Below are positions 14,183 through 26,689 of a DNA stretch of 64,000 bases, piece after piece. This stretch comes from a virus (Duplodnaviria; Caudoviricetes). Made by a program: the position numbers and the translations under genes. Position 1 is the stretch's first letter; every line of letters begins with the position of its first letter. The DNA is taken from the IMG/VR virus record IMGVR_UViG_2731957752_000002, positions 24,025-88,024 of that record. One strand, given 5' to 3'. The notes under the pieces are model-generated. The model saw only the letters and a list, made by a program, of their open reading frames with translations, was not told the origin of the DNA and did no database searches.

Positions 14183-14575
14183 ATGAACGGCGTGCGCCAG
14201 ATCTATCGGGGACGCATACATGAAGCCCCATGCGGCGAACATGACGACGCCCTATTCCTCGCCGATATCGATGTTCCCTTAGCTGAGCGCATCGAAGACG
14301 GGCTAGACCAGTGGGGACGGTTCGCGACAGTCCGCTACTGGATCACCGACACCGAACGGTGCGCCGAAGAACTGACCGACAACCTCGCCAAGATCGCAGT
14401 CGGCGCCATCGATGCCGACTACACCCACTGCTACTCCGAGTACACCGGATACCTGTGGACCGACGAGGAATTGAACGTCGGCGGCCACGACCTCCTAGAC
14501 GAGCTGCGCACGCATCTCGGGCGGTTCGCTCACATCGAGTTCGAGTACTGCGTGGAGGCACCCAACCTTGAGTGA
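14183..14575 (+). CDS. Hypothetical phage protein
   Basis: YSEYTGYLWTDE...GGHDL motif. Confidence 0.7.
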   Translation: MNGVRQIYRGRIHEAPCGEHDDALFLADIDVPLAERIEDGLDQWGRFATVRYWITDTERCAEELTDNLAKIAVGAIDADYTHCYSEYTGYLWTDEELNVGGHDLLDELRTHLGRFAHIEFEYCVEAPNLE

Positions 14576-15224
14576 AGCGACCCCTGAGCTAGTCGCGGGC
14601 GCGCACACCGCCTTTGTCGACGCTGTCCATGCGCTCATCGGCCTGCGCCCCGACACCATCACCCGCGACGACGGAACCACCACCATCGTCCTCGACAGCC
14701 TCTACGCCGAACTCCTCGAAGCCCGACACGGCGAACAACGCAGCGACCCAACCGCCGGCACCGTCTACAAATCCCGGCCGCCCTTGTGGATCGACGCCGC
14801 GAGCCTGCTGCATCAGATCGACCGCACCGTAGCCGGATGGTGGCGTCACCTGCCCGCGGACGACCACGGCCTGCCCGCCACCGTGCGACGTTTGCATGCC
14901 CTCGTCGACCACGATTGGCGCCCGCAGGATGTGGGGGAGTTGCGGCGGATGACACGCACCGTCGAAGACTGGGTGCAGCGCGTGAAAACGCTGCTGCCCG
15001 AGGAAGTCACACACACGTGGGAGTTGCGAGCTGCCTGCCCGGCTTGCGGTGAAACCACCCTGCATGTTGACGACGGCAGCGGGGAGCTGGTGCGGCGGGC
15101 GGTGTTGCAGGCCAACCAATCCGGTGCGCACTGCCTCGCCTGCACAACCACGTGGGCGCCTGAATACTTCGCGATCCTCGCTCGAACGATCGGCGCGGGC
15201 CTCCCGGAAGGCGTGCTCGAATAA
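14568..15224 (+). CDS. Zn-finger protein typical of the end of early operons in actinobacterial prophages
   Basis: SRPPLWIDA; CPAC and CLAC. Confidence 0.75.
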   Translation: MSEATPELVAGAHTAFVDAVHALIGLRPDTITRDDGTTTIVLDSLYAELLEARHGEQRSDPTAGTVYKSRPPLWIDAASLLHQIDRTVAGWWRHLPADDHGLPATVRRLHALVDHDWRPQDVGELRRMTRTVEDWVQRVKTLLPEEVTHTWELRAACPACGETTLHVDDGSGELVRRAVLQANQSGAHCLACTTTWAPEYFAILARTIGAGLPEGVLE

Positions 15225-15229
15225 CGCTG

Positions 15230-15259
15230 TTGCATCCAGTGAATGCGATGTGTTACAGT
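15230..15259 (+). promoter_or_regulatory. Promoter of Y RNA/Ro60 locus, TTGCAT-N18-TACAGT with extended -10 TG
   Basis: Hexamers; two TGAATG motifs 19 nt apart. Confidence 0.75.
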
Positions 15260-15275
15260 GAATGAAAGCATCGGA

Positions 15276-15348
15276 TCCCGGTGCGAACGCAGACGGTTAC
15301 TTCTCATTCTGGTTGATAAAGACACCGACTGCGGTCATGTTCTCGGGA
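15276..15348 (+). ncRNA. Y-RNA-like unit 1 (short; apical TTCTGGT loop)
   Basis: Nested stems TCCCGG/TCGGGA, CGCAG/CTGCG, CGGT/ACCG; GGTGCGA and GGTTACTTC motifs. Confidence 0.6.
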
Positions 15349-15360
15349 GACAACTTCACA

Positions 15361-15504
15361 GGGGCGCTGGTCCGTAGGAGTGGGTTACTTCGCATTGGGA
15401 GCGCGTAGAGCGGGTTCAACTCCCGCCATCTCGCCATAGCGCGAGATGTGGTGTAACGGCAGCACTCGTACACGTCACCTACACCGTCTTGTTGTCAGCG
15501 CCCT
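15361..15504 (+). ncRNA. Y RNA (YrlA-like) unit 2 with circularly permuted tRNA domain
   Basis: GGGCGCTG/CAGCGCCC terminal stem, GCTGGTCCG Ro-binding motif, T arm, closed acceptor stem, D arm; upstream of TROVE gene. Confidence 0.85.
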
Positions 15505-15554
15505 ACTGTGACTGCCTCCCAAGGGCATCCGGGAAACCGGGGAGAACTTCACAA

Positions 15555-15662
15555 GGTGCTGATCCGTAGAAGTGGGTTACTTCTTTGGTTGAAACTCGCA
15601 GTGCTCCTGCGAGCTAGCGGTTCAAACCCGCACGTCACCCACCTCGCCTTGTTGACAGCACC
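15555..15662 (+). ncRNA. Y-RNA-like unit 3
   Basis: GGTGCTG/CAGCACC stem, GATCCG...TTGAC, GTGGGT/ACCCAC, T arm GCGG-TTCAAAC-CCGC. Confidence 0.8.
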
Positions 15663-15711
15663 GCTTGAAGCCTCCCAGCGCAATCCAGGAACCCGTTGGG
15701 AGGCATTTCTT

Positions 15712-17385
15712 ATGGCCCGCTTCAATACCCCCGCCAAGGCACGCCCAGTCGCTGTCGGACCGATCCGCACCAAGAGCAAGAAGACCACCACCCACGAGGG
15801 TGCGGACGGATTCTTGCGCGACGCACGCTCCGAACTGCTTCTTTTGGCAGTCTCAAATTTCGTAGGCACCGACTCCTTCTATGAGTCCGCTGCCGTCCGT
15901 GACGGTCGCTACCAGAAGCTCGTGCGGAAGATGGCCGTCAAAGACGGCGACTGGACCGCCCAGCTCCTCGCGTGGCTCCGCGGCCCCGAAGCCAACATGC
16001 GCACCGCATCGCTCGTCGGCGCCGCCGAATACGTGAAAGCCCGCCTCGACGCCGGCATCACAGGCAACAACCGGCACGTCATCTCGTCCGTTCTTCAGCG
16101 CGCCGACGAGCCGGGGGAGATGCTGGCCTACTGGGCCTCGAAGTACGGCTGGCCGGGAGGGCGCACACCCCACGAGAGCGGTAAGATGCCGACCGCGCCG
16201 GTGCTCCCGCAGCCGGTCAAGCGAGGCGTTGCAGACGCGGCGGTCAGGCTGTTTTCGGAACGGTCGCTGTTGAAGTACGACACCGCATCCCACGGCTTCC
16301 GGTTCGGCGACGTCATCGACCTCACTCACCCCGAGCCCAAAGCTGACTGGCAGTCCGACTTGTTCCGGCATGCCCTCGATCGCCGACACAACCGGGGCGA
16401 GAACATCCCCGACGCGCTGAACATGTTGGTGAAGAACCGGAACGTCCGCAACTGGACACCGGAGGAGATCGTGAAGCGCGCGAATTACACCGGTGACGAA
16501 CTGACGCCATTGTCGGAGGTGCTCGCGCAGTCCGGCATGACATGGGAAGACGTTCCGTCGTTGGTGAACGGACCGTGGACGAAGGAACTGTGGGAAGCCA
16601 TCATCCCGTCCATGGGCTACATGGCGCTGCTGCGTAACCTCCGCAACTTCGATCAGGCGGGCGTGTCCGACAAGGTGGCGGCGCAGGTGATCGCGAAACT
16701 CGCCGACCCCGAGCAGGTTGCGCGGTCGCGGCAGCTGCCGATGCGGTTCCTGTCCGCGTACAAGGCGGCGCCGTCGCTGCGGTGGGCGTACCCGCTGGAG
16801 CAGGCGTTGGATCACTCGCTCAGCAACATTCCGAAGCTCGCGGGCCGCACCCTGATCCTCGTGGACACCTCGTCGTCGATGGACGCTGGCTTCAGCAAGG
16901 ACGGGACGCTCATGCGGTGGGATGCCGCGGCGCTGTTCGGGATCGCGTTGGCGTCGCGTTGCGCGGACGCGGACGTGGTGTCGTTCTCGTCGACTGCCAT
17001 CTACTGGGGTGACCCTGTCGGCGCGAGGACGAAGGTGTTCGACCGCCCGCGTGGTGAGTCGCTGCTGAAGTCGCTGGACCGTTGGAAGTCGGGTGGCTGG
17101 TTCCTCGGCGGCGGTACAGCCACCCGAGAAGCCGTGCAGAAGCATTTCGCGAACCACGACCGTGTCGTCATCCTCACCGACGAACAGGCGGGCGGCACAG
17201 GGAATCCTGGCGCGGCAATCCCCAAGCAGACGCCGCTGTACACATGGAACCTCGCCGGATACCGAGCGAGTCATGCGGAGTCCGGTCCGTTCAGGCACAC
17301 GTTCGGCGGGTTGAATGACAGCGGCTTCCGCCTGATTCCGTTGTTGGAATCCGGGCGCAACGGCACGTGGCCGTGGATCTCCTGA
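15712..17385 (+). CDS. rsr: Ro60/Rsr TROVE-domain RNA-binding protein with C-terminal vWA
   Basis: THEG, SFYES, QRADEPGE, MGYMALLRNLRN, vWA MIDAS DTSSS, GGT, ILTDEQ; GGGAGG RBS before ATG 15712. Confidence 0.95.
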   Translation: MARFNTPAKARPVAVGPIRTKSKKTTTHEGADGFLRDARSELLLLAVSNFVGTDSFYESAAVRDGRYQKLVRKMAVKDGDWTAQLLAWLRGPEANMRTASLVGAAEYVKARLDAGITGNNRHVISSVLQRADEPGEMLAYWASKYGWPGGRTPHESGKMPTAPVLPQPVKRGVADAAVRLFSERSLLKYDTASHGFRFGDVIDLTHPEPKADWQSDLFRHALDRRHNRGENIPDALNMLVKNRNVRNWTPEEIVKRANYTGDELTPLSEVLAQSGMTWEDVPSLVNGPWTKELWEAIIPSMGYMALLRNLRNFDQAGVSDKVAAQVIAKLADPEQVARSRQLPMRFLSAYKAAPSLRWAYPLEQALDHSLSNIPKLAGRTLILVDTSSSMDAGFSKDGTLMRWDAAALFGIALASRCADADVVSFSSTAIYWGDPVGARTKVFDRPRGESLLKSLDRWKSGGWFLGGGTATREAVQKHFANHDRVVILTDEQAGGTGNPGAAIPKQTPLYTWNLAGYRASHAESGPFRHTFGGLNDSGFRLIPLLESGRNGTWPWIS

Positions 17386-17693
17386 ACCTGGTTTCGGGTC
17401 TGCTGGGGTGGAGGAGAGCGCAGGCGGCTGGTCGTGCGCTCTCCGCCCAGCTGGCGGCCAACCGGAACGCATTCAAAGCCGACCTCGTTCGGGCGCGTGA
17501 GGACGCTGGACTGAGCCGTGAGGACGTCGCCGAACGGCTTGGTGTCAGCGTCGAGCACATCGCCCGGTTCGAGGATCCGAAAGCCAACCCGCGACTGCAA
17601 ATGATCTGTTCCTACGCGCATGCGATCGGCGCGATCGTGGCGTTCGATGTCCGACCGTTCGAAGGGGATAAGGTTGCGAAACAAGCTGGGTGA
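17367..17693 (+). CDS. XRE-family HTH protein
   Basis: REDAGLSREDVAERLGVSVEHIARFE. Confidence 0.8.
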   Translation: MAVDLLNLVSGLLGWRRAQAAGRALSAQLAANRNAFKADLVRAREDAGLSREDVAERLGVSVEHIARFEDPKANPRLQMICSYAHAIGAIVAFDVRPFEGDKVAKQAG

Positions 17694-19281: not shown

Positions 19282-19647
19282 ATGACCCTGTTCGTCCGCT
19301 ACATCGAAAACAACGACCACGAAGGCGAACGGTGGGTGTTCTGGCTTCAGAAGGACGGTAACGAAGCCGCCCTCGCCGAGCTGGAACAAATCCTTGAGAC
19401 CGCCGAAGCCGAAGCGACCGCCGCAGAAGGCTACTACGAGATGCCCTACCAGATCCCAGCCGACATCGAGCCCGAAGCAGTCGTGGACAAACTGGTCGAG
19501 TACGCGGAGGGCGGGTACATGGATGGCCACAACAAGGTACGCGGCAAACTCGATCTAACTCGACTGCGTGGGCGATCTTGGGAAGGCGCCTTCGACACCT
19601 TGTACAAGGGCGGTATCCGCAACATGTTCAAGGACGACACCGAGTGA
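19282..19647 (+). CDS. Hypothetical phage protein
   Basis: ENNDHEGERW...GYMDGHNK...LYKGGI. Confidence 0.7.
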   Translation: MTLFVRYIENNDHEGERWVFWLQKDGNEAALAELEQILETAEAEATAAEGYYEMPYQIPADIEPEAVVDKLVEYAEGGYMDGHNKVRGKLDLTRLRGRSWEGAFDTLYKGGIRNMFKDDTE

Positions 19648-20390
19648 CCGCCTGGGAAGACCTCGCGCCGACCCGGCTGGCGATCGCGGGCGATTGGCAT
19701 GGCAACCAGTTCCATGCGGTTCGCGCAATTGAGTACGCGGCTGAGCAGGGCGCTGACGTCATCGTGCACGTCGGCGACTTCGCTTACGACTTCAAACCGA
19801 AGTTCATGGCAGCAGTTCAGCGCGCGCTCGAAGACGCTGGGCTCGTTCTCGGGTTCGTGCCAGGCAATCATGAGAACTGGACCTACCTCGACACCCGCGA
19901 GCAAGAACACGGCTGCACTGCGATCCCGCTGCGCCCCAACATCTTCTACCTACCTCGCTGCTACCGATGGACTTGGGGCGGTGTCTCGTTCCTCGCGCTT
20001 GGTGGTGCGCACTCCGTCGACCGGCCATGGCGCGTACCCGGCAAGTCTTGGTGGCGGCGGGAGACGATTACGCAGGCCGAAGCCGACCGTGCGATAGCCG
20101 GGGGAGCGGCCGACGTGATGATCTGCCACGACGTGCCCTCGGGCGTCCGTATCCCGTGCATTGAGAGCAACCCGCTCGGCTTCCCGCAAGCGGAGATCTA
20201 CGCGGCTGACGTGCACCGCGCGCGCCTGCGTGAGGTCGTCGACGTTGTTCAACCGCGGCGCCTTTTCGCCGGCCACTACCACTGCCGTCTGACCGCTGAG
20301 CTCGACTGCGGCAGCTACCGGACACAGGTCGACATCCTCGCCGACGACTCGGCGCCACTCGCCGACAACACCACGCTCGTTGACATTTGA
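19644..20390 (+). CDS. Calcineurin-like metallophosphoesterase
   Basis: GDWHG, VGD, GNHE, HD, GHYH. Confidence 0.9.
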   Translation: MTAWEDLAPTRLAIAGDWHGNQFHAVRAIEYAAEQGADVIVHVGDFAYDFKPKFMAAVQRALEDAGLVLGFVPGNHENWTYLDTREQEHGCTAIPLRPNIFYLPRCYRWTWGGVSFLALGGAHSVDRPWRVPGKSWWRRETITQAEADRAIAGGAADVMICHDVPSGVRIPCIESNPLGFPQAEIYAADVHRARLREVVDVVQPRRLFAGHYHCRLTAELDCGSYRTQVDILADDSAPLADNTTLVDI

Positions 20391-21092: not shown

Positions 21093-21671
21093 ATGACAAC
21101 TATCGATCCGTGGGCGCCGCCTGAGCAGGGAGAGGACGAAGACTATGTCGACTACCTCGGGCGCAAAGCCGACCTTTACTACGAGAGCCCGCCGCCTGCA
21201 CCACCTGGCTTCCGGTTGATCGAATGCACTGCCGAGCCGCGGCACTGGCCTCGATACGAGTTCATTGACCACGACTTCTACGGCAGCTCATGCCCGGACT
21301 GCGGAGCAGACCTTTACCACCGCGAGCTGCGGGAGTTGAAGCGCCGCTACCACCGCCTCCAGCATCCGATCCGAGGCAGGATCGCAAGCCGCGGATTGGG
21401 TTACCTCCAACTGTTGGGCGTGATCGCAGGCTACGGCTCACGGTGGGGCGGGGACGCGGGTTGCAAATGGTGCCTGACTGGGATCCGCATCCGCGGCAAG
21501 CGTTCCTACATCTTGGGTTGGCCGACGTGGAAGTGGGCGTGCCTGTTCCAGCGCCGCCACTGGCCTGGCGAGGAAGCCTATTTCGGGTTGTGCGGCAAAT
21601 GCCTGCCCTGCCCCGACTGCGGAACAACGAAATGGGACCACGAGTGCACTGGAACTGAGGCGGCGGCATGA
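21093..21671 (+). CDS. Cys-rich hypothetical protein
   Basis: CPDC, CKWC, CGKC.PCPDC. Confidence 0.7.
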   Translation: MTTIDPWAPPEQGEDEDYVDYLGRKADLYYESPPPAPPGFRLIECTAEPRHWPRYEFIDHDFYGSSCPDCGADLYHRELRELKRRYHRLQHPIRGRIASRGLGYLQLLGVIAGYGSRWGGDAGCKWCLTGIRIRGKRSYILGWPTWKWACLFQRRHWPGEEAYFGLCGKCLPCPDCGTTKWDHECTGTEAAA

Positions 21672-22300
21672 ATCTGTGGGATGACGTGGCGGCTTTTTCC
21701 CGTGCGTGCGGTGTGCGGATGCTGACCAAACCTGGATGGGTGCCAGACGACGAGTTGCAGCTCGCCTTACGACTCGTACGGGAAGAACTGACCGAACTCG
21801 ACACCGCCCTCCAAGAACGCGACCTCGTGGAGGTTGCTGACGCAATCGCGGACAGCTTGTACGTCCTCGCTGGTCTCGCTCTCCGCACGGGCCTCGCACG
21901 CACGTACATCGTCGACATGATCAAAGACCTGTCGTACTCCACGCTCATGACCATCAGCGGACATGTCGGATTCGCGACGCTCACCGACGACGAAATCGAC
22001 GAAATCCGCCGCGACCTCGAAACCCAACACGAGCGCATCACTGCCGCGGTCGACGCCCGCAACCTCATTGAACTGGACGCCGCCACACACCAAACCATGC
22101 ACGCGGTCGCGGGCATCGGATACGTGATGTGCCTGCCCATGAAAGCGGTCTGGGATGCCGTCCAGTCCTCGAACATGAGCAAGGTCGTTGACGGCAAGGT
22201 GATCCGCGATGAAGGCGGCAAGATACTCAAACCATCGACCTTCGTGCGCCCCGACATCGCTGGTGTTCTCGCACGCCACGGATGGACGGAGGCGGCGTGA
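21668..22300 (+). CDS. MazG/PRA-PH-like nucleotide pyrophosphohydrolase
   Basis: EELTEL...EVADAIADSLYV, SNMSK, GKILKP. Confidence 0.85.
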   Translation: MNLWDDVAAFSRACGVRMLTKPGWVPDDELQLALRLVREELTELDTALQERDLVEVADAIADSLYVLAGLALRTGLARTYIVDMIKDLSYSTLMTISGHVGFATLTDDEIDEIRRDLETQHERITAAVDARNLIELDAATHQTMHAVAGIGYVMCLPMKAVWDAVQSSNMSKVVDGKVIRDEGGKILKPSTFVRPDIAGVLARHGWTEAA

Positions 22301-22575
22301 AGACGCATCCGTCGCTGGGTTGGTGCCAGTCCTGCGGTAAGCAGGCGTTCAGCGGTCGGAAGGCAGCGAAGGCTGCTTGCCGGCGCCGGTTTCCGAATGA
22401 ACGGATGCAGGGCTACCGGTGCCCTGTACGTGAAGGTGCTTGGCATGCTGGGCATCTCGCGGATGAAGTGCGGTCGGGTGAGGTGTCCCGCGCCGAGTTC
22501 TACGGTCCGCGTGGGGTTGGTCGTGTACGGGAGATGCAGGGCACTCGGCGCCCGCTGAGGAGGGCAGTGGCGTGA
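22297..22575 (+). CDS. Zn-binding hypothetical protein
   Basis: CQSCGK...YRCP...WHAGH. Confidence 0.65.
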   Translation: MKTHPSLGWCQSCGKQAFSGRKAAKAACRRRFPNERMQGYRCPVREGAWHAGHLADEVRSGEVSRAEFYGPRGVGRVREMQGTRRPLRRAVA

Positions 22576-23084
22576 GCGGGCGAGGGATGGGGAGTCATCA
22601 TTCGGCGCGAGCCGGGTCGGATGTGTGGTTGACGCCGCCCGGTGTCGTCACCGCGCTTGGCGCTTTCGATCTGGACCCCTGTGCGGCGGAACCTCGACCG
22701 TGGGACACCGCCCGTCGACACATCGCGCCGCCTGACGACGGGCTCGCAGCCACATGGGAGGGGCGTGTGTTTCTGAATCCGCCCTATTCGAACCTTACGG
22801 ACTGGCTTGGCAAGCTTGCCGACCACGGCCGCGGAACCGCTCTGATCTTTGCGCGCACCGAAACCCGATGGTTCGTTGACCTGGTGTGGCAGCGGGCGAG
22901 TGCAGTGATGTTCCTGCATGGGCGACTCCACTTCCATCTGCCTGATGGTTCCAGGGCGCGGGGCAACGCGGGCGCCCCAAGTTGCCTTGTCGCCTATGGC
23001 GATGGTGACGCCCTTCGGCTGGCGGGGTCGGGGCTGGCGGGAACTTTCGTGAATCTCGGCAACAGTAGTTTGGAGGCGGCATGA
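22572..23084 (+). CDS. Phage DNA N6-adenine methyltransferase
   Basis: WLTPP, FDLDPCA, DGL, NPPYS, ARTET, GRL.F. Confidence 0.9.
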   Translation: MSGRGMGSHHSARAGSDVWLTPPGVVTALGAFDLDPCAAEPRPWDTARRHIAPPDDGLAATWEGRVFLNPPYSNLTDWLGKLADHGRGTALIFARTETRWFVDLVWQRASAVMFLHGRLHFHLPDGSRARGNAGAPSCLVAYGDGDALRLAGSGLAGTFVNLGNSSLEAA

Positions 23085-24449: not shown

Positions 24450-24561
24450 TCGGCGGTATGCCCGAGGTCGGGGCGGGGACCGGTTAGGTCGATCAATCGT
24501 CGTACGGATAGGGTTGGTGGCTGTTGTCCATTCCCCGCCAGCCCTGGACAGGAGACCAGTA

Positions 24562-25947
24562 GTGGGTAAGCAGTCCCGTGTCGATACCGTCGCCAACCTC
24601 GCAAAACGTCGAGGAATCGTCTACCAATGCGGCGAAATCTATGGCGGCACCAAGTCGGCATGGGACTACGGTCCGCTCGGCGTCGAGCTGAAGGAGAACA
24701 TCAAGCGGCAGTGGTGGCGGTCCATGGTCACCGGCCGCGAAGATGTCGTCGGCTTGGACTCGTCGGTGATCCTGCCGCGCCAGGTGTGGCATGCATCCGG
24801 CCACGTCGAGACGTTCTCTGACCCGCTGGTGGAGTCGCTACACACCCACAAGCGATACAGGGCCGATCACCTGCTGGAGGCGTACGAAGCCAAGCACGGG
24901 CACCCGCCGGCCAACGGTCTCGCCGACATCCGTGACCCTGAGACGGGGCAGCCTGGCGCGTGGACGGAGCCGCGGAACTTCTCCGGCCTGCTCAAGACCT
25001 TCCTCGGTCCGGTGGATGACGAAGAAGGCTTGCACTATCTCCGCCCGGAGACGGCGCAGGGCATCTTCGTCAACTACAAGAACGTCGAGACCACCGCGCG
25101 CAAGAAGCCGCCGTTCGGCATCGCCCAGATCGGCAAGAGCTTCCGCAACGAGATCACGCCGGGCAACTTCATCTTCCGCACCCGCGAGTTCGAGCAGATG
25201 GAGATGGAGTTCTTCGTCAAGCCGGGCGAGGACGAGCAGTGGCACCAGTACTGGATCGACACCCGCATGGCCTGGTACACCGAACTGGGTATCGACCCGG
25301 AGAATCTGCGACTGTTCGAGCATCCGAAGGACAAGCTGTCGCATTATTCGACGCGGACTGTGGACATCGAGTACCGGTTCGGGTTCCAGGGCAGCGAGTG
25401 GGGTGAGTTGGAAGGTGTCGCCAACCGCACTGACTTCGACCTGAAGACGCATTCGGAGCACTCGGGTACCGAACTCAGCTACTTCGACCAGGCCACCAAC
25501 GAGCGCTACATCCCGTACGTCATCGAGCCCGCGGCCGGTCTGACTCGTTCGCTGATGGCGTTCCTGGTGGACGCGTACACGGAGGATGAGGCGCCGAACG
25601 CGAAGGGTGTGATGGAGTCGCGGACCGTGCTGCGCCTGGACCACAGGCTTGCGCCGGTGAAGGTGGCGGTGCTGCCGCTGTCCCGTAACGCTGATCTGAC
25701 TCCGAAGGCGAAGGATCTCGCGGCCCAGCTGCGGAAGCACTGGAATGTGGAGTTTGATGATGCGGGTGGTGTCGGTCGTCGTTACCGCCGTCAGGATGAG
25801 ATCGGTACACCGTTCTGTGTGACGGTCGATTTCGATTCGCTGGACGATCAGGCGGTGACCATCCGGGAGCGGGACTCGATGGCGCAGGAGCGTGTCGGGT
25901 TGGACCAGGTGGAAGCGTATTTGGCGACGCGGCTGCTGGGCTGCTGA
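24562..25947 (+). CDS. glyQS: Glycine--tRNA ligase (alpha2, class II)
   Basis: [61 protein letters not shown]; AGGAG RBS before GTG. Confidence 0.97.
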
Positions 25948-26170: not shown

Positions 26171-26240
26171 TCCTCGATAGCTCAGTGGTAGAGCGCCCGA
26201 TAGAAAGGGACGGTCCCGCGTTCAATTCGCGGTCGAGGAA
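26171..26240 (+). tRNA. tRNA-like gene with defective anticodon arm (isotype undetermined)
   Basis: Perfect acceptor TCCTCGA/TCGAGGA, D arm and T arm; anticodon arm only CCC-GATAGAAA-GGG. Confidence 0.7.
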
Positions 26241-26243
26241 CAA

Positions 26244-26587: not shown

Positions 26588-26663
26588 AGCGGCGTAGAGC
26601 AGTTCGGTAGCTCGCTGGGCTCATAACCCAGGTCTGTCGTGGGTTCAAATCCCACCGCCGCGA
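26588..26663 (+). tRNA. tRNA-fMet (CAT), initiator type
   Basis: Cloverleaf; 1:72 mismatch, three G-C pairs in anticodon stem, A11-U24; CCA not encoded. Confidence 0.9.
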
Positions 26664-26689
26664 CAACCACCCCGACTTTGCGAACCGGG

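Follow-up and report, generated by a model that had tools for sequence, protein, structure and literature searches.

An actinobacterial prophage that carries a gene for a Ro60 protein behind an array of three hairpin-forming units raises the question whether these units are Y RNA genes of a known kind, tRNA decoys, a structured mRNA leader or degenerate tRNA or protein-coding genes. The locus occupies positions 15230–17385 of the 64-kb stretch of DNA that was analysed (the window), in which terminase, portal, major head and minor tail proteins are also encoded. We consider it highly likely that this locus is an rsr (Ro60) operon of the prophage and that its three paralogous units encode Y RNAs, predicted members of the YrlA family. 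The locus is an ordinary three-RNA case of the protein-RNA particle known from mycobacteria and phages. For Ro60 biology it contributes little beyond a further rsr operon, in this case with a short Y RNA beside a YrlA and a YrlB-like one.

The locus and its Ro60 gene

The elements follow each other on the plus strand in the order promoter-like region, units 1, 2 and 3, hairpin and rsr. The predicted features are:

15230–15259, plus strand: promoter-like region as read from the sequence, with TTGCAT (15230–15235), an 18-nt spacer and the extended −10 element TGTTACAGT (15251–15259)
15268–15353, plus strand: unit 1, short Y RNA with terminal stem, GGUGCGAAC handle, second helix and GGUUACUUC apex, without T or D arm
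15349–15360, plus strand: linker between units 1 and 2, GACAACTTCACA, read in the same way
15357–15505, plus strand: unit 2, full YrlA-type Y RNA of 149 nt, with handle GGUCCGUAG, with GGUUACUUC at 15383–15391 and with CUUGUUGUCAGCGCC in its 3' strand
15391–15403, plus strand: V hairpin of unit 2, CGC-AUUGGGA-GCG
15410–15426, plus strand: T arm of unit 2
15427–15448, plus strand: acceptor-like hairpin of unit 2, 8 bp
15451–15465, plus strand: D arm of unit 2
15506–15548, plus strand: spacer with a weak hairpin, GCCTCCCA ... GGGGAG
15542–15553, plus strand: second copy of the linker, before unit 3, GAGAACTTCACA
15549–15665, plus strand: unit 3, T-arm-only Y RNA with handle GAUCCGUAG and with GGUUACUUC at 15575–15583, without acceptor hairpin or D arm; its interior holds a small hairpin, UUC-UUUGGUU-GAA, a 7-bp hairpin (15595–15613) and a T-arm-like hairpin with a 4-bp stem (15617–15631)
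15670–15704, plus strand: pre-rsr hairpin, the 3' arm of which holds the Shine-Dalgarno sequence GGGAGG (15698–15703), 8 nt before the ATG; AUUUCUU follows
15712–17385, plus strand: rsr, Ro60 ortholog of 557 amino acids, with TROVE ring and a putative vWA domain with the MIDAS motif DTSSS at 16864–16878

The start codon of rsr is the ATG at 15712, and the gene does not begin at 15703. The encoded protein is matched by Pfam TROVE (PF05731) with 68 bits against a cut-off of 23 (E = 1.2e-18) and, over residues 23–553, by PHROG 850 'RNA-binding protein' (E = 1.6e-48). In a phmmer search residues 260–554 match Ro60 from the Thermus phage phiLo (9KOP/9L5Y; E = 2.7e-19). Profiles for the vWA domain stay below the cut-off (VWA_2 18.7 bits, cut-off 27; vWA_Ro60 11.4 bits), and the DTSSS motif (DxSxS) is readable. 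As rsr is the sole TROVE match in the 7.69-Mb genome, the host has no TROVE gene of its own, and a lysogen of this prophage would therefore offer a clean laboratory system for the function of the phage Ro60 particle.

Three hairpins with a common handle

The array lies on the same strand as rsr, and its end is at a distance of 47 nt from the start codon; a position within about 4 kb of a TROVE gene, on the strand of the latter, serves as a mark of YrlA RNAs. In single-sequence folds, each unit is a closed hairpin with its 5' end paired to its 3' end. Folding energies are −27.8, −60.0 and −40.4 kcal/mol for units 1, 2 and 3, respectively, with z-scores against shuffled sequences of only −1.7 to −2.3. 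Common to all three units are a handle made of two helices and an internal loop (GGUGCGnAG or GGUCCGUAG) as well as the junction GGUUACUUC. The string GGTTACTTC is found at 15295, 15383 and 15575, always on the plus strand, and these are the only copies in the window; 0.11 copies are expected, and three were reached in none of 100 shuffles. The handle varies between GGTGCG in unit 1, GGTCCG in unit 2 and, in addition, GATCCG, and units 2 and 3 share ACGTCACC...CTTGTTG.

Units of this type were searched for with R1, a covariance model built from 16 units of other loci and containing no sequence from the window. Between 14500 and 18500, R1 recovers unit 2 with 94.9 bits (model positions 1–144; E = 1.2e-25 over the whole window), unit 3 with 41.0 bits (E = 7e-10; the handle is aligned and the interior skipped) and unit 1 with 29.5 bits (E = 9.4e-08 with filters off), while the next best of the 48 matches listed reaches 8.6 bits. 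When the 7.69-Mb genome was searched, units 2 and 3 were the top two matches and unit 1 was missed; three of the four other matches are tandem tRNA gene pairs. An RNAduplex search for the 3' partners of the handles was noisy, often paired neighbouring units and was dropped.

The initial annotation had placed three hairpins with a shared scaffold before rsr and had taken them for Y RNAs beside a phage-borne Ro60 gene. Both statements are borne out, the former by the R1 matches and the latter by these together with the TROVE match. It had further described a constant handle with variable, tRNA-derived inserts; the handle indeed appears to be of the Ro60-binding kind, and the apical modules differ and contain parts of tRNA. 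Only unit 2 possesses the complete permuted tRNA-like domain, which runs from the V hairpin via the T arm and the closed acceptor-like stem to the D arm; in unit 3 the tRNA-like portion is confined to a T arm, and unit 1 has none. The statement that the inserts differ completely goes too far, since the T arm recurs in units 2 and 3 and UGGUUGA(U)AA follows GGUUACUUC in units 1 and 3.

As judged from these features, units 1 and 3 fit the non-YrlA partner classes, short hairpin and YrlB-like, respectively, and not YrlA proper. Unit 1 is a predicted member of a short hairpin class with clear counterparts at other loci. In an alignment of 21 short units, compensatory changes affect five of the six predicted terminal-stem pairs; RNAalifold recovered only this 6-pair stem because the second helix was left unaligned by MAFFT.

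The Ro-binding motif given by Chen et al. (2014) for the 5' strand of the terminal stem is GNCGAAN0-1G, and its literal GNCGAA is missing from all three units, although their stems are present and covary. The sequence is UGCGAAC in unit 1 and UCCGUAG in units 2 and 3, and GGUGCGnAG is conserved in the handles of relatives.

Could the units instead be degenerate tRNA genes or small protein-coding ORFs? ARAGORN calls a tRNA-Pro at 15360–15435, ORFs of 44 and 48 amino acids overlap the units, and equivalent units in the phages Trax and Rabbitrun lie under the annotated CDS 91–93 and CDS 93–94, respectively. We nevertheless regard this explanation as extremely improbable. The Rfam tRNA model has no match on unit 2, conservation tracks base pairs and not codons, and the arms of unit 2 run from T via acceptor to D with a closed acceptor stem, so that a tRNA could not arise from it without cutting. 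The ARAGORN call itself is a partial reading of unit 2, which lacks the cloverleaf order with free acceptor ends. When the 64-kb window was scanned with Rfam at gathering thresholds, only a tRNA-Met was found, and the tRNA model matches solely at 26588–26663. An Rfam scan by E-value brought up BjrC68 and a Tymovirus tRNA-like element in 15150–15750, both of which are matches at chance level.

Counterparts at other TROVE loci and in actinophages

Comparison with the regions upstream of related TROVE genes, as suggested in the initial annotation, favors the reading as Y RNA genes. Directly upstream and on the same strand, at least one unit is present at 27 of 30 related loci, at least two at 24 and at least three at 12, with a maximum of five, counts that overstate independent support because the loci share ancestry. 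For the 16 training units of R1, RNAalifold yields 31 pairs, 21 of which exhibit compensatory changes. In 52 model-aligned units 95.9% of the cells pair as compared with 67.8% after shuffling and 38–45% in slid controls, and both sides change in 26 of the 31 pairs; this alignment leans towards structure because it was fitted to R1 itself.

The order of the units is also conserved. Elsewhere, a short unit is followed by a full YrlA and then by a T-arm-only unit or a second YrlA, and the layout of unit 3 recurs in the second units, about 102 nt long, that separate the YrlA unit from the TROVE gene in bacterial genome records (L024–L028). The three modules are thus conserved classes that keep the same order at other loci, and the designation as interchangeable payloads is not supported. 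The same applies to the statement that no description of such an array is known, as sets of upstream Y RNAs are given in the available text of Chen et al. (2014; PMC4201824) and of the phiLo paper (PMC12135203).

According to the accessible text of the former study (RNA 20:1715; PMC4201824), YrlA and YrlB are encoded upstream of rsr in Mycobacterium smegmatis as parts of one precursor, from which they are cut, and the freed RNAs are bound by Rsr; four small RNAs are reported upstream of rsr in D. radiodurans and YrlA-like RNAs in 22 phages. There as here, the RNA genes immediately precede rsr in the same orientation, and a T-arm-only second RNA resembling unit 3 lies between YrlA and rsr. M. 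smegmatis YrlA has a length of about 147 nt and the order V, T, acceptor-like and D with a long acceptor-like stem, while unit 2 has 149 nt, the same order and 7–8 bp in this stem. The hairpin CCA-CUUCUAA-UGG, contained in the published M. smegmatis YrlA probe, has direct counterparts in relatives. The locus differs in that it resides in a prophage, the host of which has no other TROVE gene, and in that it has a third, short unit at the front. Moreover, its handles GGUCCGUAG and GAUCCGUAG with the conserved 3' CUUGUUG are nearer to animal GGUCCGA than to GNCGAA.

In the Thermus phage phiLo, Ro60 is accompanied by two Y RNAs encoded upstream, Yrl1 and Yrl2, both of which are bound by the protein, and phiLo Ro60 forms a complex with host PNPase, as the available text of the report states (NAR 2025; PMC12135203). 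The two phage systems have in common the Y RNA-like genes directly upstream of the Ro60 gene, and phiLo Ro60 is the only solved structure matched by the sequence of the window protein. They differ in protein sequence (about 26% identity) and in the number of RNAs, two in phiLo and three here.

The check with the Rfam YrlA model (RF02553) proposed in the initial annotation had a different outcome: the model has no match in 15150–15750, even at E up to 10. On full units of relatives it scores 28–54 bits (E down to 1.4e-09), all below the gathering score of 69. The model is seeded on Salmonella-type YrlA, with which the units share the succession of T arm, closed acceptor-like stem and D arm as well as the replacement of the anticodon stem by the handle stem, whereas actinobacterial units have an extra hairpin between handle and T arm. 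Because a match to RF02553 is absent, the tie of the units to the YrlA family is transitive, via R1 and the published members from M. smegmatis and Gordonia.

Arrays of two to five units were found in six further actinophages. Phages taken into the comparison were Gordonia Trax, Neville, VanLee and Rabbitrun, Streptomyces GiJojo, BRock, Kradal and Frankenweenie, and Arthrobacter Atuin. Their Ro-like proteins are 37–47% identical over 99% of the query, with two to five R1 matches beside the gene. Unlike the prophage studied here, these are lytic or large phages; in several of them, from Streptomyces and Arthrobacter, the Ro gene sits within tRNA gene arrays. In Atuin, the array is located mostly downstream of the Ro gene. 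None of the fetched actinophage stretches has an annotated Y RNA feature, and the units are left blank or lie under small ORFs, as in Trax and Rabbitrun, or under tRNAs (Arg-tct in VanLee, Arg-cct in GiJojo and Pro-tgg in Frankenweenie). Public phage records thus miss Y RNA arrays, which may be more frequent than the main texts, as far as these are available, suggest with their 'at least two' per species. A model of the R1 type would remedy the missing annotation, as the Rfam YrlA model is drawn too narrowly to cover this clade.

The association with phages and tRNA gene arrays also bears on the proposal of a decoy array, in which Rsr-bound tRNA parts, including the 7-nt loop after GGUUACUUC, would, in the course of infection, divert tRNA-cleaving toxins, defence nucleases or tRNA-modifying enzymes of the host. 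Of 31 distinct full units, 13 can form a stem of 4 bp closed by a 7-nt loop when the register is fixed; automatic selection of the longest V-region hairpin with such a loop was rejected as it picked non-homologous hairpins. In these 13 units, the second loop position is U without exception, the sixth a purine in 12 and the seventh A in 11, and the middle triplet varies, which together is the signature of an anticodon loop. Furthermore, tRNA finders and annotators label such units tRNA-Pro, tRNA-Arg(tct) or tRNA-Arg(cct). On the other hand, the stem has only 3–4 bp and 18 of the 31 units fall outside the fixed register. Similar RNAs, hairpin included, occur in the M. smegmatis order beside TROVE genes in the bacterial records mentioned above, which may include prophages. 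An anticodon loop is absent from the solved tRNA-like domain of Salmonella YrlA, for which the authors, in the part of the report available, expect recognition of the D/T elbow by the partners (10.1101/312249). In the present analysis, the locus was not linked to any defence or toxin gene. On balance, we judge a decoy function to be quite unlikely. A broader conjecture would have the hairpin after GGUUACUUC act as a working mimic of an anticodon stem-loop and the array as a panel of 'anticodons' and elbows on one Ro60 ring, directed at tRNA-specific nucleases, modification enzymes or synthetases of the host and varied by phages through tandem duplication; this, too, appears unlikely.

Promoter-like region, linkers and spacer hairpins

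The proposal of one promoter ahead of the array stands in so far as a conserved element, TGnTAnnnT or TANNNT, is present; it is the sole support, and a scan for the sigma-70 consensus returned no sites. TGnTAnnnT is kept at the equivalent place in the related loci L019 and L005, and TANNNT occurs at most 22 nt upstream of the first unit at 24 of 28 loci, the background rate being about 0.024 per stretch of this kind. The linker pattern A[AC][CT]T[TC][CT]A, which was defined post hoc, precedes 17 of 71 units as compared with about 0.7 expected, and by analogy the linkers may represent processing sites. The pre-rsr hairpin (−14 kcal/mol, z −1.64) is kept in L019 and L005 and may have a role in translational control or termination.

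These features bring up the possibility that the three hairpins jointly form a long leader of the rsr mRNA, acting in cis on its stability or translation, instead of giving rise to individual RNAs. They are encoded on the same strand as rsr, no plus-strand terminator was called between the units and rsr, the one terminator-like site called in the scan being located on the minus strand inside rsr, and a conserved hairpin right after unit 3 sequesters the ribosome-binding site. Such a leader is still very unlikely, as the copy number varies from one to five among close relatives, each unit has its own closed and compensated terminal stem, the array is found mostly on the other side of the Ro gene in Atuin, and the M. 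smegmatis counterparts are released RNAs.

For the favored reading as Y RNA genes, the following sequence of events can be put forward by analogy. As in the published relatives, the array would be transcribed as a single precursor, with one promoter immediately ahead of unit 1, and be cut in the C-containing single-stranded linkers. The Rsr ring would bind the handle of each RNA, and the apical module would tether Rsr to RNA enzymes of the host. PNPase, a documented partner in Deinococcus, Salmonella and phage phiLo, is a candidate for the tethered enzyme, and a tRNA-binding protein would be expected to recognize the tRNA-like elbow of unit 2. [quoted passage not shown]

Tandem duplication, with later loss or exchange of interior parts, has probably enlarged the array. 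Unit 3 and its trailing hairpin look like a tandem duplicate of unit 2 and its hairpin at 15506–15548. The latter folds with −13.5 kcal/mol and is not significant alone because its z-score is −0.13. It is kept in L019, its counterpart in L005 directly precedes the TROVE gene, and it is apparently a decayed copy of the pre-rsr hairpin.

Three Y RNA units ahead of the phage rsr gene

Three hairpin units with a shared scaffold had been proposed upstream of the TROVE gene rsr, a Ro60 ortholog, and all three are recovered (29.5 to 94.9 bits) by R1, a covariance model made from units of other loci with the window sequence excluded. The locus is organized as follows:

14568-15224, phage gene of unknown function (DUF7341 and DUF7340, PHROG 1467)
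15225-15711, non-coding region between this gene and rsr
15268-15353, unit 1
15357-15505, unit 2
15549-15665, unit 3
15712-17385, plus strand, rsr

Related TROVE loci were gathered from five genome records, eight IMG/VR records and two Gordonia phages; another 18 places, spread over 17 other genomes, came from 300 genomes of the same family. In many of these loci, one to four copies of the 9-mer GGTTACTTC lie ahead of the TROVE gene; the window holds three copies in 64 kb, all at the Y RNA locus (0.11 expected). Of the 22 units in which the 9-mer is combined with a T arm, 16 were aligned for R1; the two window units (deliberately) and four short units without D arm were omitted. RNAalifold predicts 31 pairs for this alignment, 21 with compensatory changes. 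The consensus begins with an 8-bp terminal stem, the internal loop GGUGCGnAG, a second helix and the junction GGUUACUUC, which is followed by a T arm, a 7-bp closed hairpin and a canonical D arm (UAGCUCAnnGGUAGAGC). R1 matches unit 2 end to end with 94.9 bits, unit 3 with 41.0 and unit 1 with 29.5, the best score besides these in 4 kb being 8.6. Every unit folds into a closed hairpin, with modest single-sequence z-scores of -1.7 to -2.3. Judged from sequence, the three units are real and above chance.

When the whole source genome (7.69 Mb in 124 contigs) was searched with R1, units 2 and 3 were the top two matches, unit 1 was not recovered, and four other matches appeared. Three of these, with 28-37 bits, span adjacent tRNA gene pairs on other contigs (L045 926-1128, L046 1510-1704 and L048 1468-1644), the model taking its T arm from the first tRNA and its D arm from the second. 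Such matches are in line with a published proposal that YrlA, a named bacterial Y RNA, derived from a dimeric tRNA transcript (cited in 10.1101/312249). The fourth, on another contig, is a partial match of 30.6 bits to model positions 54-110 (L047, G000:C42:64859-64916, minus strand), where ARAGORN finds no tRNA.

The rsr reading frame runs from the ATG at 15712, 8 nt behind GGGAGG, to 17385. Its product has matches to Pfam TROVE (1.2e-18) and, across almost its whole length, to PHROG 850 ('RNA-binding protein'); the sole solved structure matched is the phiLo Ro60, from a Thermus phage (E 2.7e-19). The MIDAS motif DTSSS is legible, while Pfam vWA models score under their cut-offs. The genome has no other TROVE match.

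Identity and origin of the units

The Rfam YrlA model has no match in the window and reaches only sub-threshold scores with the relatives' full units (28-54 bits, E down to 1.4e-09). Membership of the units among the Y RNAs is therefore based on architecture, genomic position and the R1 link. The arms of unit 2 follow the published YrlA order. Its 5' part comprises the handle, a two-helix stem with internal loop of the kind bound by Ro60, then the conserved YUAY (here UUAC) starting the V region, and the V hairpin. The remaining elements are:

15410-15426, T arm
15427-15448, closed acceptor-like stem of 8 bp
15451-15465, D arm, preceded by U and G and followed by the 3' strand

YrlA of M. smegmatis, about 147 nt long and located 5' of rsr, has an acceptor-like stem of 7 bp, is cleaved by RNase P and receives CCA (PMC4201824). 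Unit 1 is a member of the short class (about 80 nt), which comes first in the array in most relatives and shows covariation in five of six terminal stem pairs. Unit 3 has three hairpins, one small, one of 7 bp and one resembling a T arm, but neither acceptor stem nor D arm. The same layout is found in the second units (~102 nt) of five related loci (L024-L028), between YrlA unit and TROVE gene, just the position of M. smegmatis YrlB, which has a possible T arm (PMC4201824).

The initial annotation regarded the apical inserts as interchangeable cassettes. A simpler account is that unit 2 and its trailing hairpin were duplicated in tandem, and that the copy, unit 3, then lost its interior. This origin is the most likely one because in the window and in its nearest relative L019 (71% protein identity) unit 2 is followed by a decayed copy of the hairpin found ahead of rsr. 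L019 has a short unit and a YrlA unit as in the window, and a full YrlA in third place; the array of L005 stops at two units.

Arrays are the rule in related TROVE loci. With filters off, 27 of 30 loci have full-model R1 matches directly upstream in the orientation of the gene (none in L029, L030 and L035), with at least two units in 24, at least three in 12 and five in L016. Six further isolated actinophages have 2-5 units each. Across 52 model-aligned units, 95.9% of cells are paired (shuffles 67.8%, slid controls 38-45%) and two-sided changes occur in 26 of 31 pairs, figures that overstate independent support because the alignment was fitted to R1 and the loci are interrelated. The locus of phage Trax has four additional partial matches confined to the model's T-arm region, two of them on or beside annotated tRNA genes. 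In Arthrobacter phage Atuin (L039 3245-3836), only one full-model match precedes the Ro gene, and four follow it in a stretch with tRNA genes; the array need not be the gene's leader.

The array had also been taken as undescribed. Y RNAs adjoining phage Ro60 genes and several Y RNAs per locus are already in print: YrlA-like RNAs were reported in 22 phages (Chen et al. 2014, PMC4201824), Ro60 and Y RNAs of phiLo were studied by experiment (PMC12135203), and a survey of Mycolicibacterium prophages mentions one YrlA (PMC8190616). What stands is that our literature search turned up no publication describing actinophage arrays of three to five units, which the supplements of Chen et al. may list.

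Transcription, processing and genomic setting

An extended -10 element, TGTTACAGT, at 15251-15259 is kept in L019 and L005, and in 24 of 28 loci a TANNNT hexamer is located no more than 22 nt ahead of the first unit (background ~0.024). The single promoter originally proposed is supported to this extent, but a promoter scan, which uses an E. coli-type consensus, found none. A linker, AACUUCACA, precedes unit 2 (15349-15360) and unit 3 (15542-15553), and may be a processing site; across related loci, a loose version of the pattern, defined post hoc, stands ahead of 17 of 71 units (~0.7 expected). Endonuclease cuts within the linkers could plausibly free the units from a precursor, since mycobacterial RNase E cleaves immediately upstream of cytidines (PMC10641625) and one precursor gives both YrlA and YrlB in M. 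smegmatis (PMC4201824).

The Shine-Dalgarno sequence of rsr, GGGAGG (15698-15703), pairs with GCCUCCCA in a predicted hairpin within 15670-15711 that is kept in L019 and L005 and is followed by AUUUCUU. It could act as a translational switch or as a weak terminator between the RNAs and rsr.

Terminase, portal, major head and minor tail genes lie in the window on the strand of the Y RNA/TROVE locus, which marks the setting, by gene content, as a prophage or phage-derived region. An XRE-type helix-turn-helix gene (17367-17693) starts 19 nt ahead of the rsr stop codon, and because of this overlap rsr is probably co-transcribed with downstream genes. Further downstream are:

19578-20390, same strand, metallophosphoesterase
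21668-22300, same strand, MazG-like PRA-PH protein
22572-23084, same strand, Dam-type methyltransferase
24514-25947, same strand, class II aminoacyl-tRNA synthetase-like gene with anticodon-binding domain
26171-26241, 'tRNA-Ser' called by ARAGORN alone, without confirmation by Rfam
26588-26664, tRNA-Met, after the synthetase-like gene

Function and likeness to tRNA

In Deinococcus and Salmonella, Rsr is tethered to PNPase by a Y RNA. In phage phiLo, Ro60 binds two Y RNAs encoded upstream of it and joins host PNPase in a complex (PMC12135203). Those who solved the YrlA crystal structure expect its partner to be a tRNA-binding one, recognizing the D/T elbow (10.1101/312249). By analogy, the most likely working model is that a phage-supplied Ro60 ring carries three adaptor RNAs, which would link it to host RNA-decay or tRNA-handling enzymes.

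A different role, in which the Rsr-bound units mimic tRNA and serve as decoys, survives at low odds on account of an additional hairpin straight after ACUUC in actinobacterial units, the V stem-loop of Chen et al. (15391-15403 in unit 2, loop AUUGGGA). Counted in fixed register, it yields 31 distinct 15-mers, taken from 33 of the 38 units that score 60 bits or more; the other five fall outside the motif pattern. Thirteen of the 31 form a stem with a 7-nt loop. These loops carry an anticodon-loop signature, with U at position 2 in every case, purine at position 6 in 12 and A at position 7 in 11, the triplet being variable. Paired cells number 80 of 124, a value that none of 1000 shuffles attains (mean 65.2, sd 3.5). 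However, the stem is short, 18 of the 31 are off the fixed register, the hairpin is also present in the published M. smegmatis YrlA, and the solved YrlA, as described in 10.1101/312249, has no anticodon loop.

The signature leads tRNA finders to call such units tRNAs. Strong R1 matches are overlapped by tRNA-Arg(tct) of VanLee (L002 2316-2387), tRNA-Arg(cct) of GiJojo (L037 1269-1343) and a 91-nt tRNA-Pro(tgg) of Frankenweenie (L040 1248-1338), as well as by small 'hypothetical protein' CDS of the Gordonia phages Trax (CDS 91-93, L001 2244-2654) and Rabbitrun (CDS 93-94, L042 921-1278). These GenBank features are probably Y RNA units mis-annotated as tRNAs or open reading frames.
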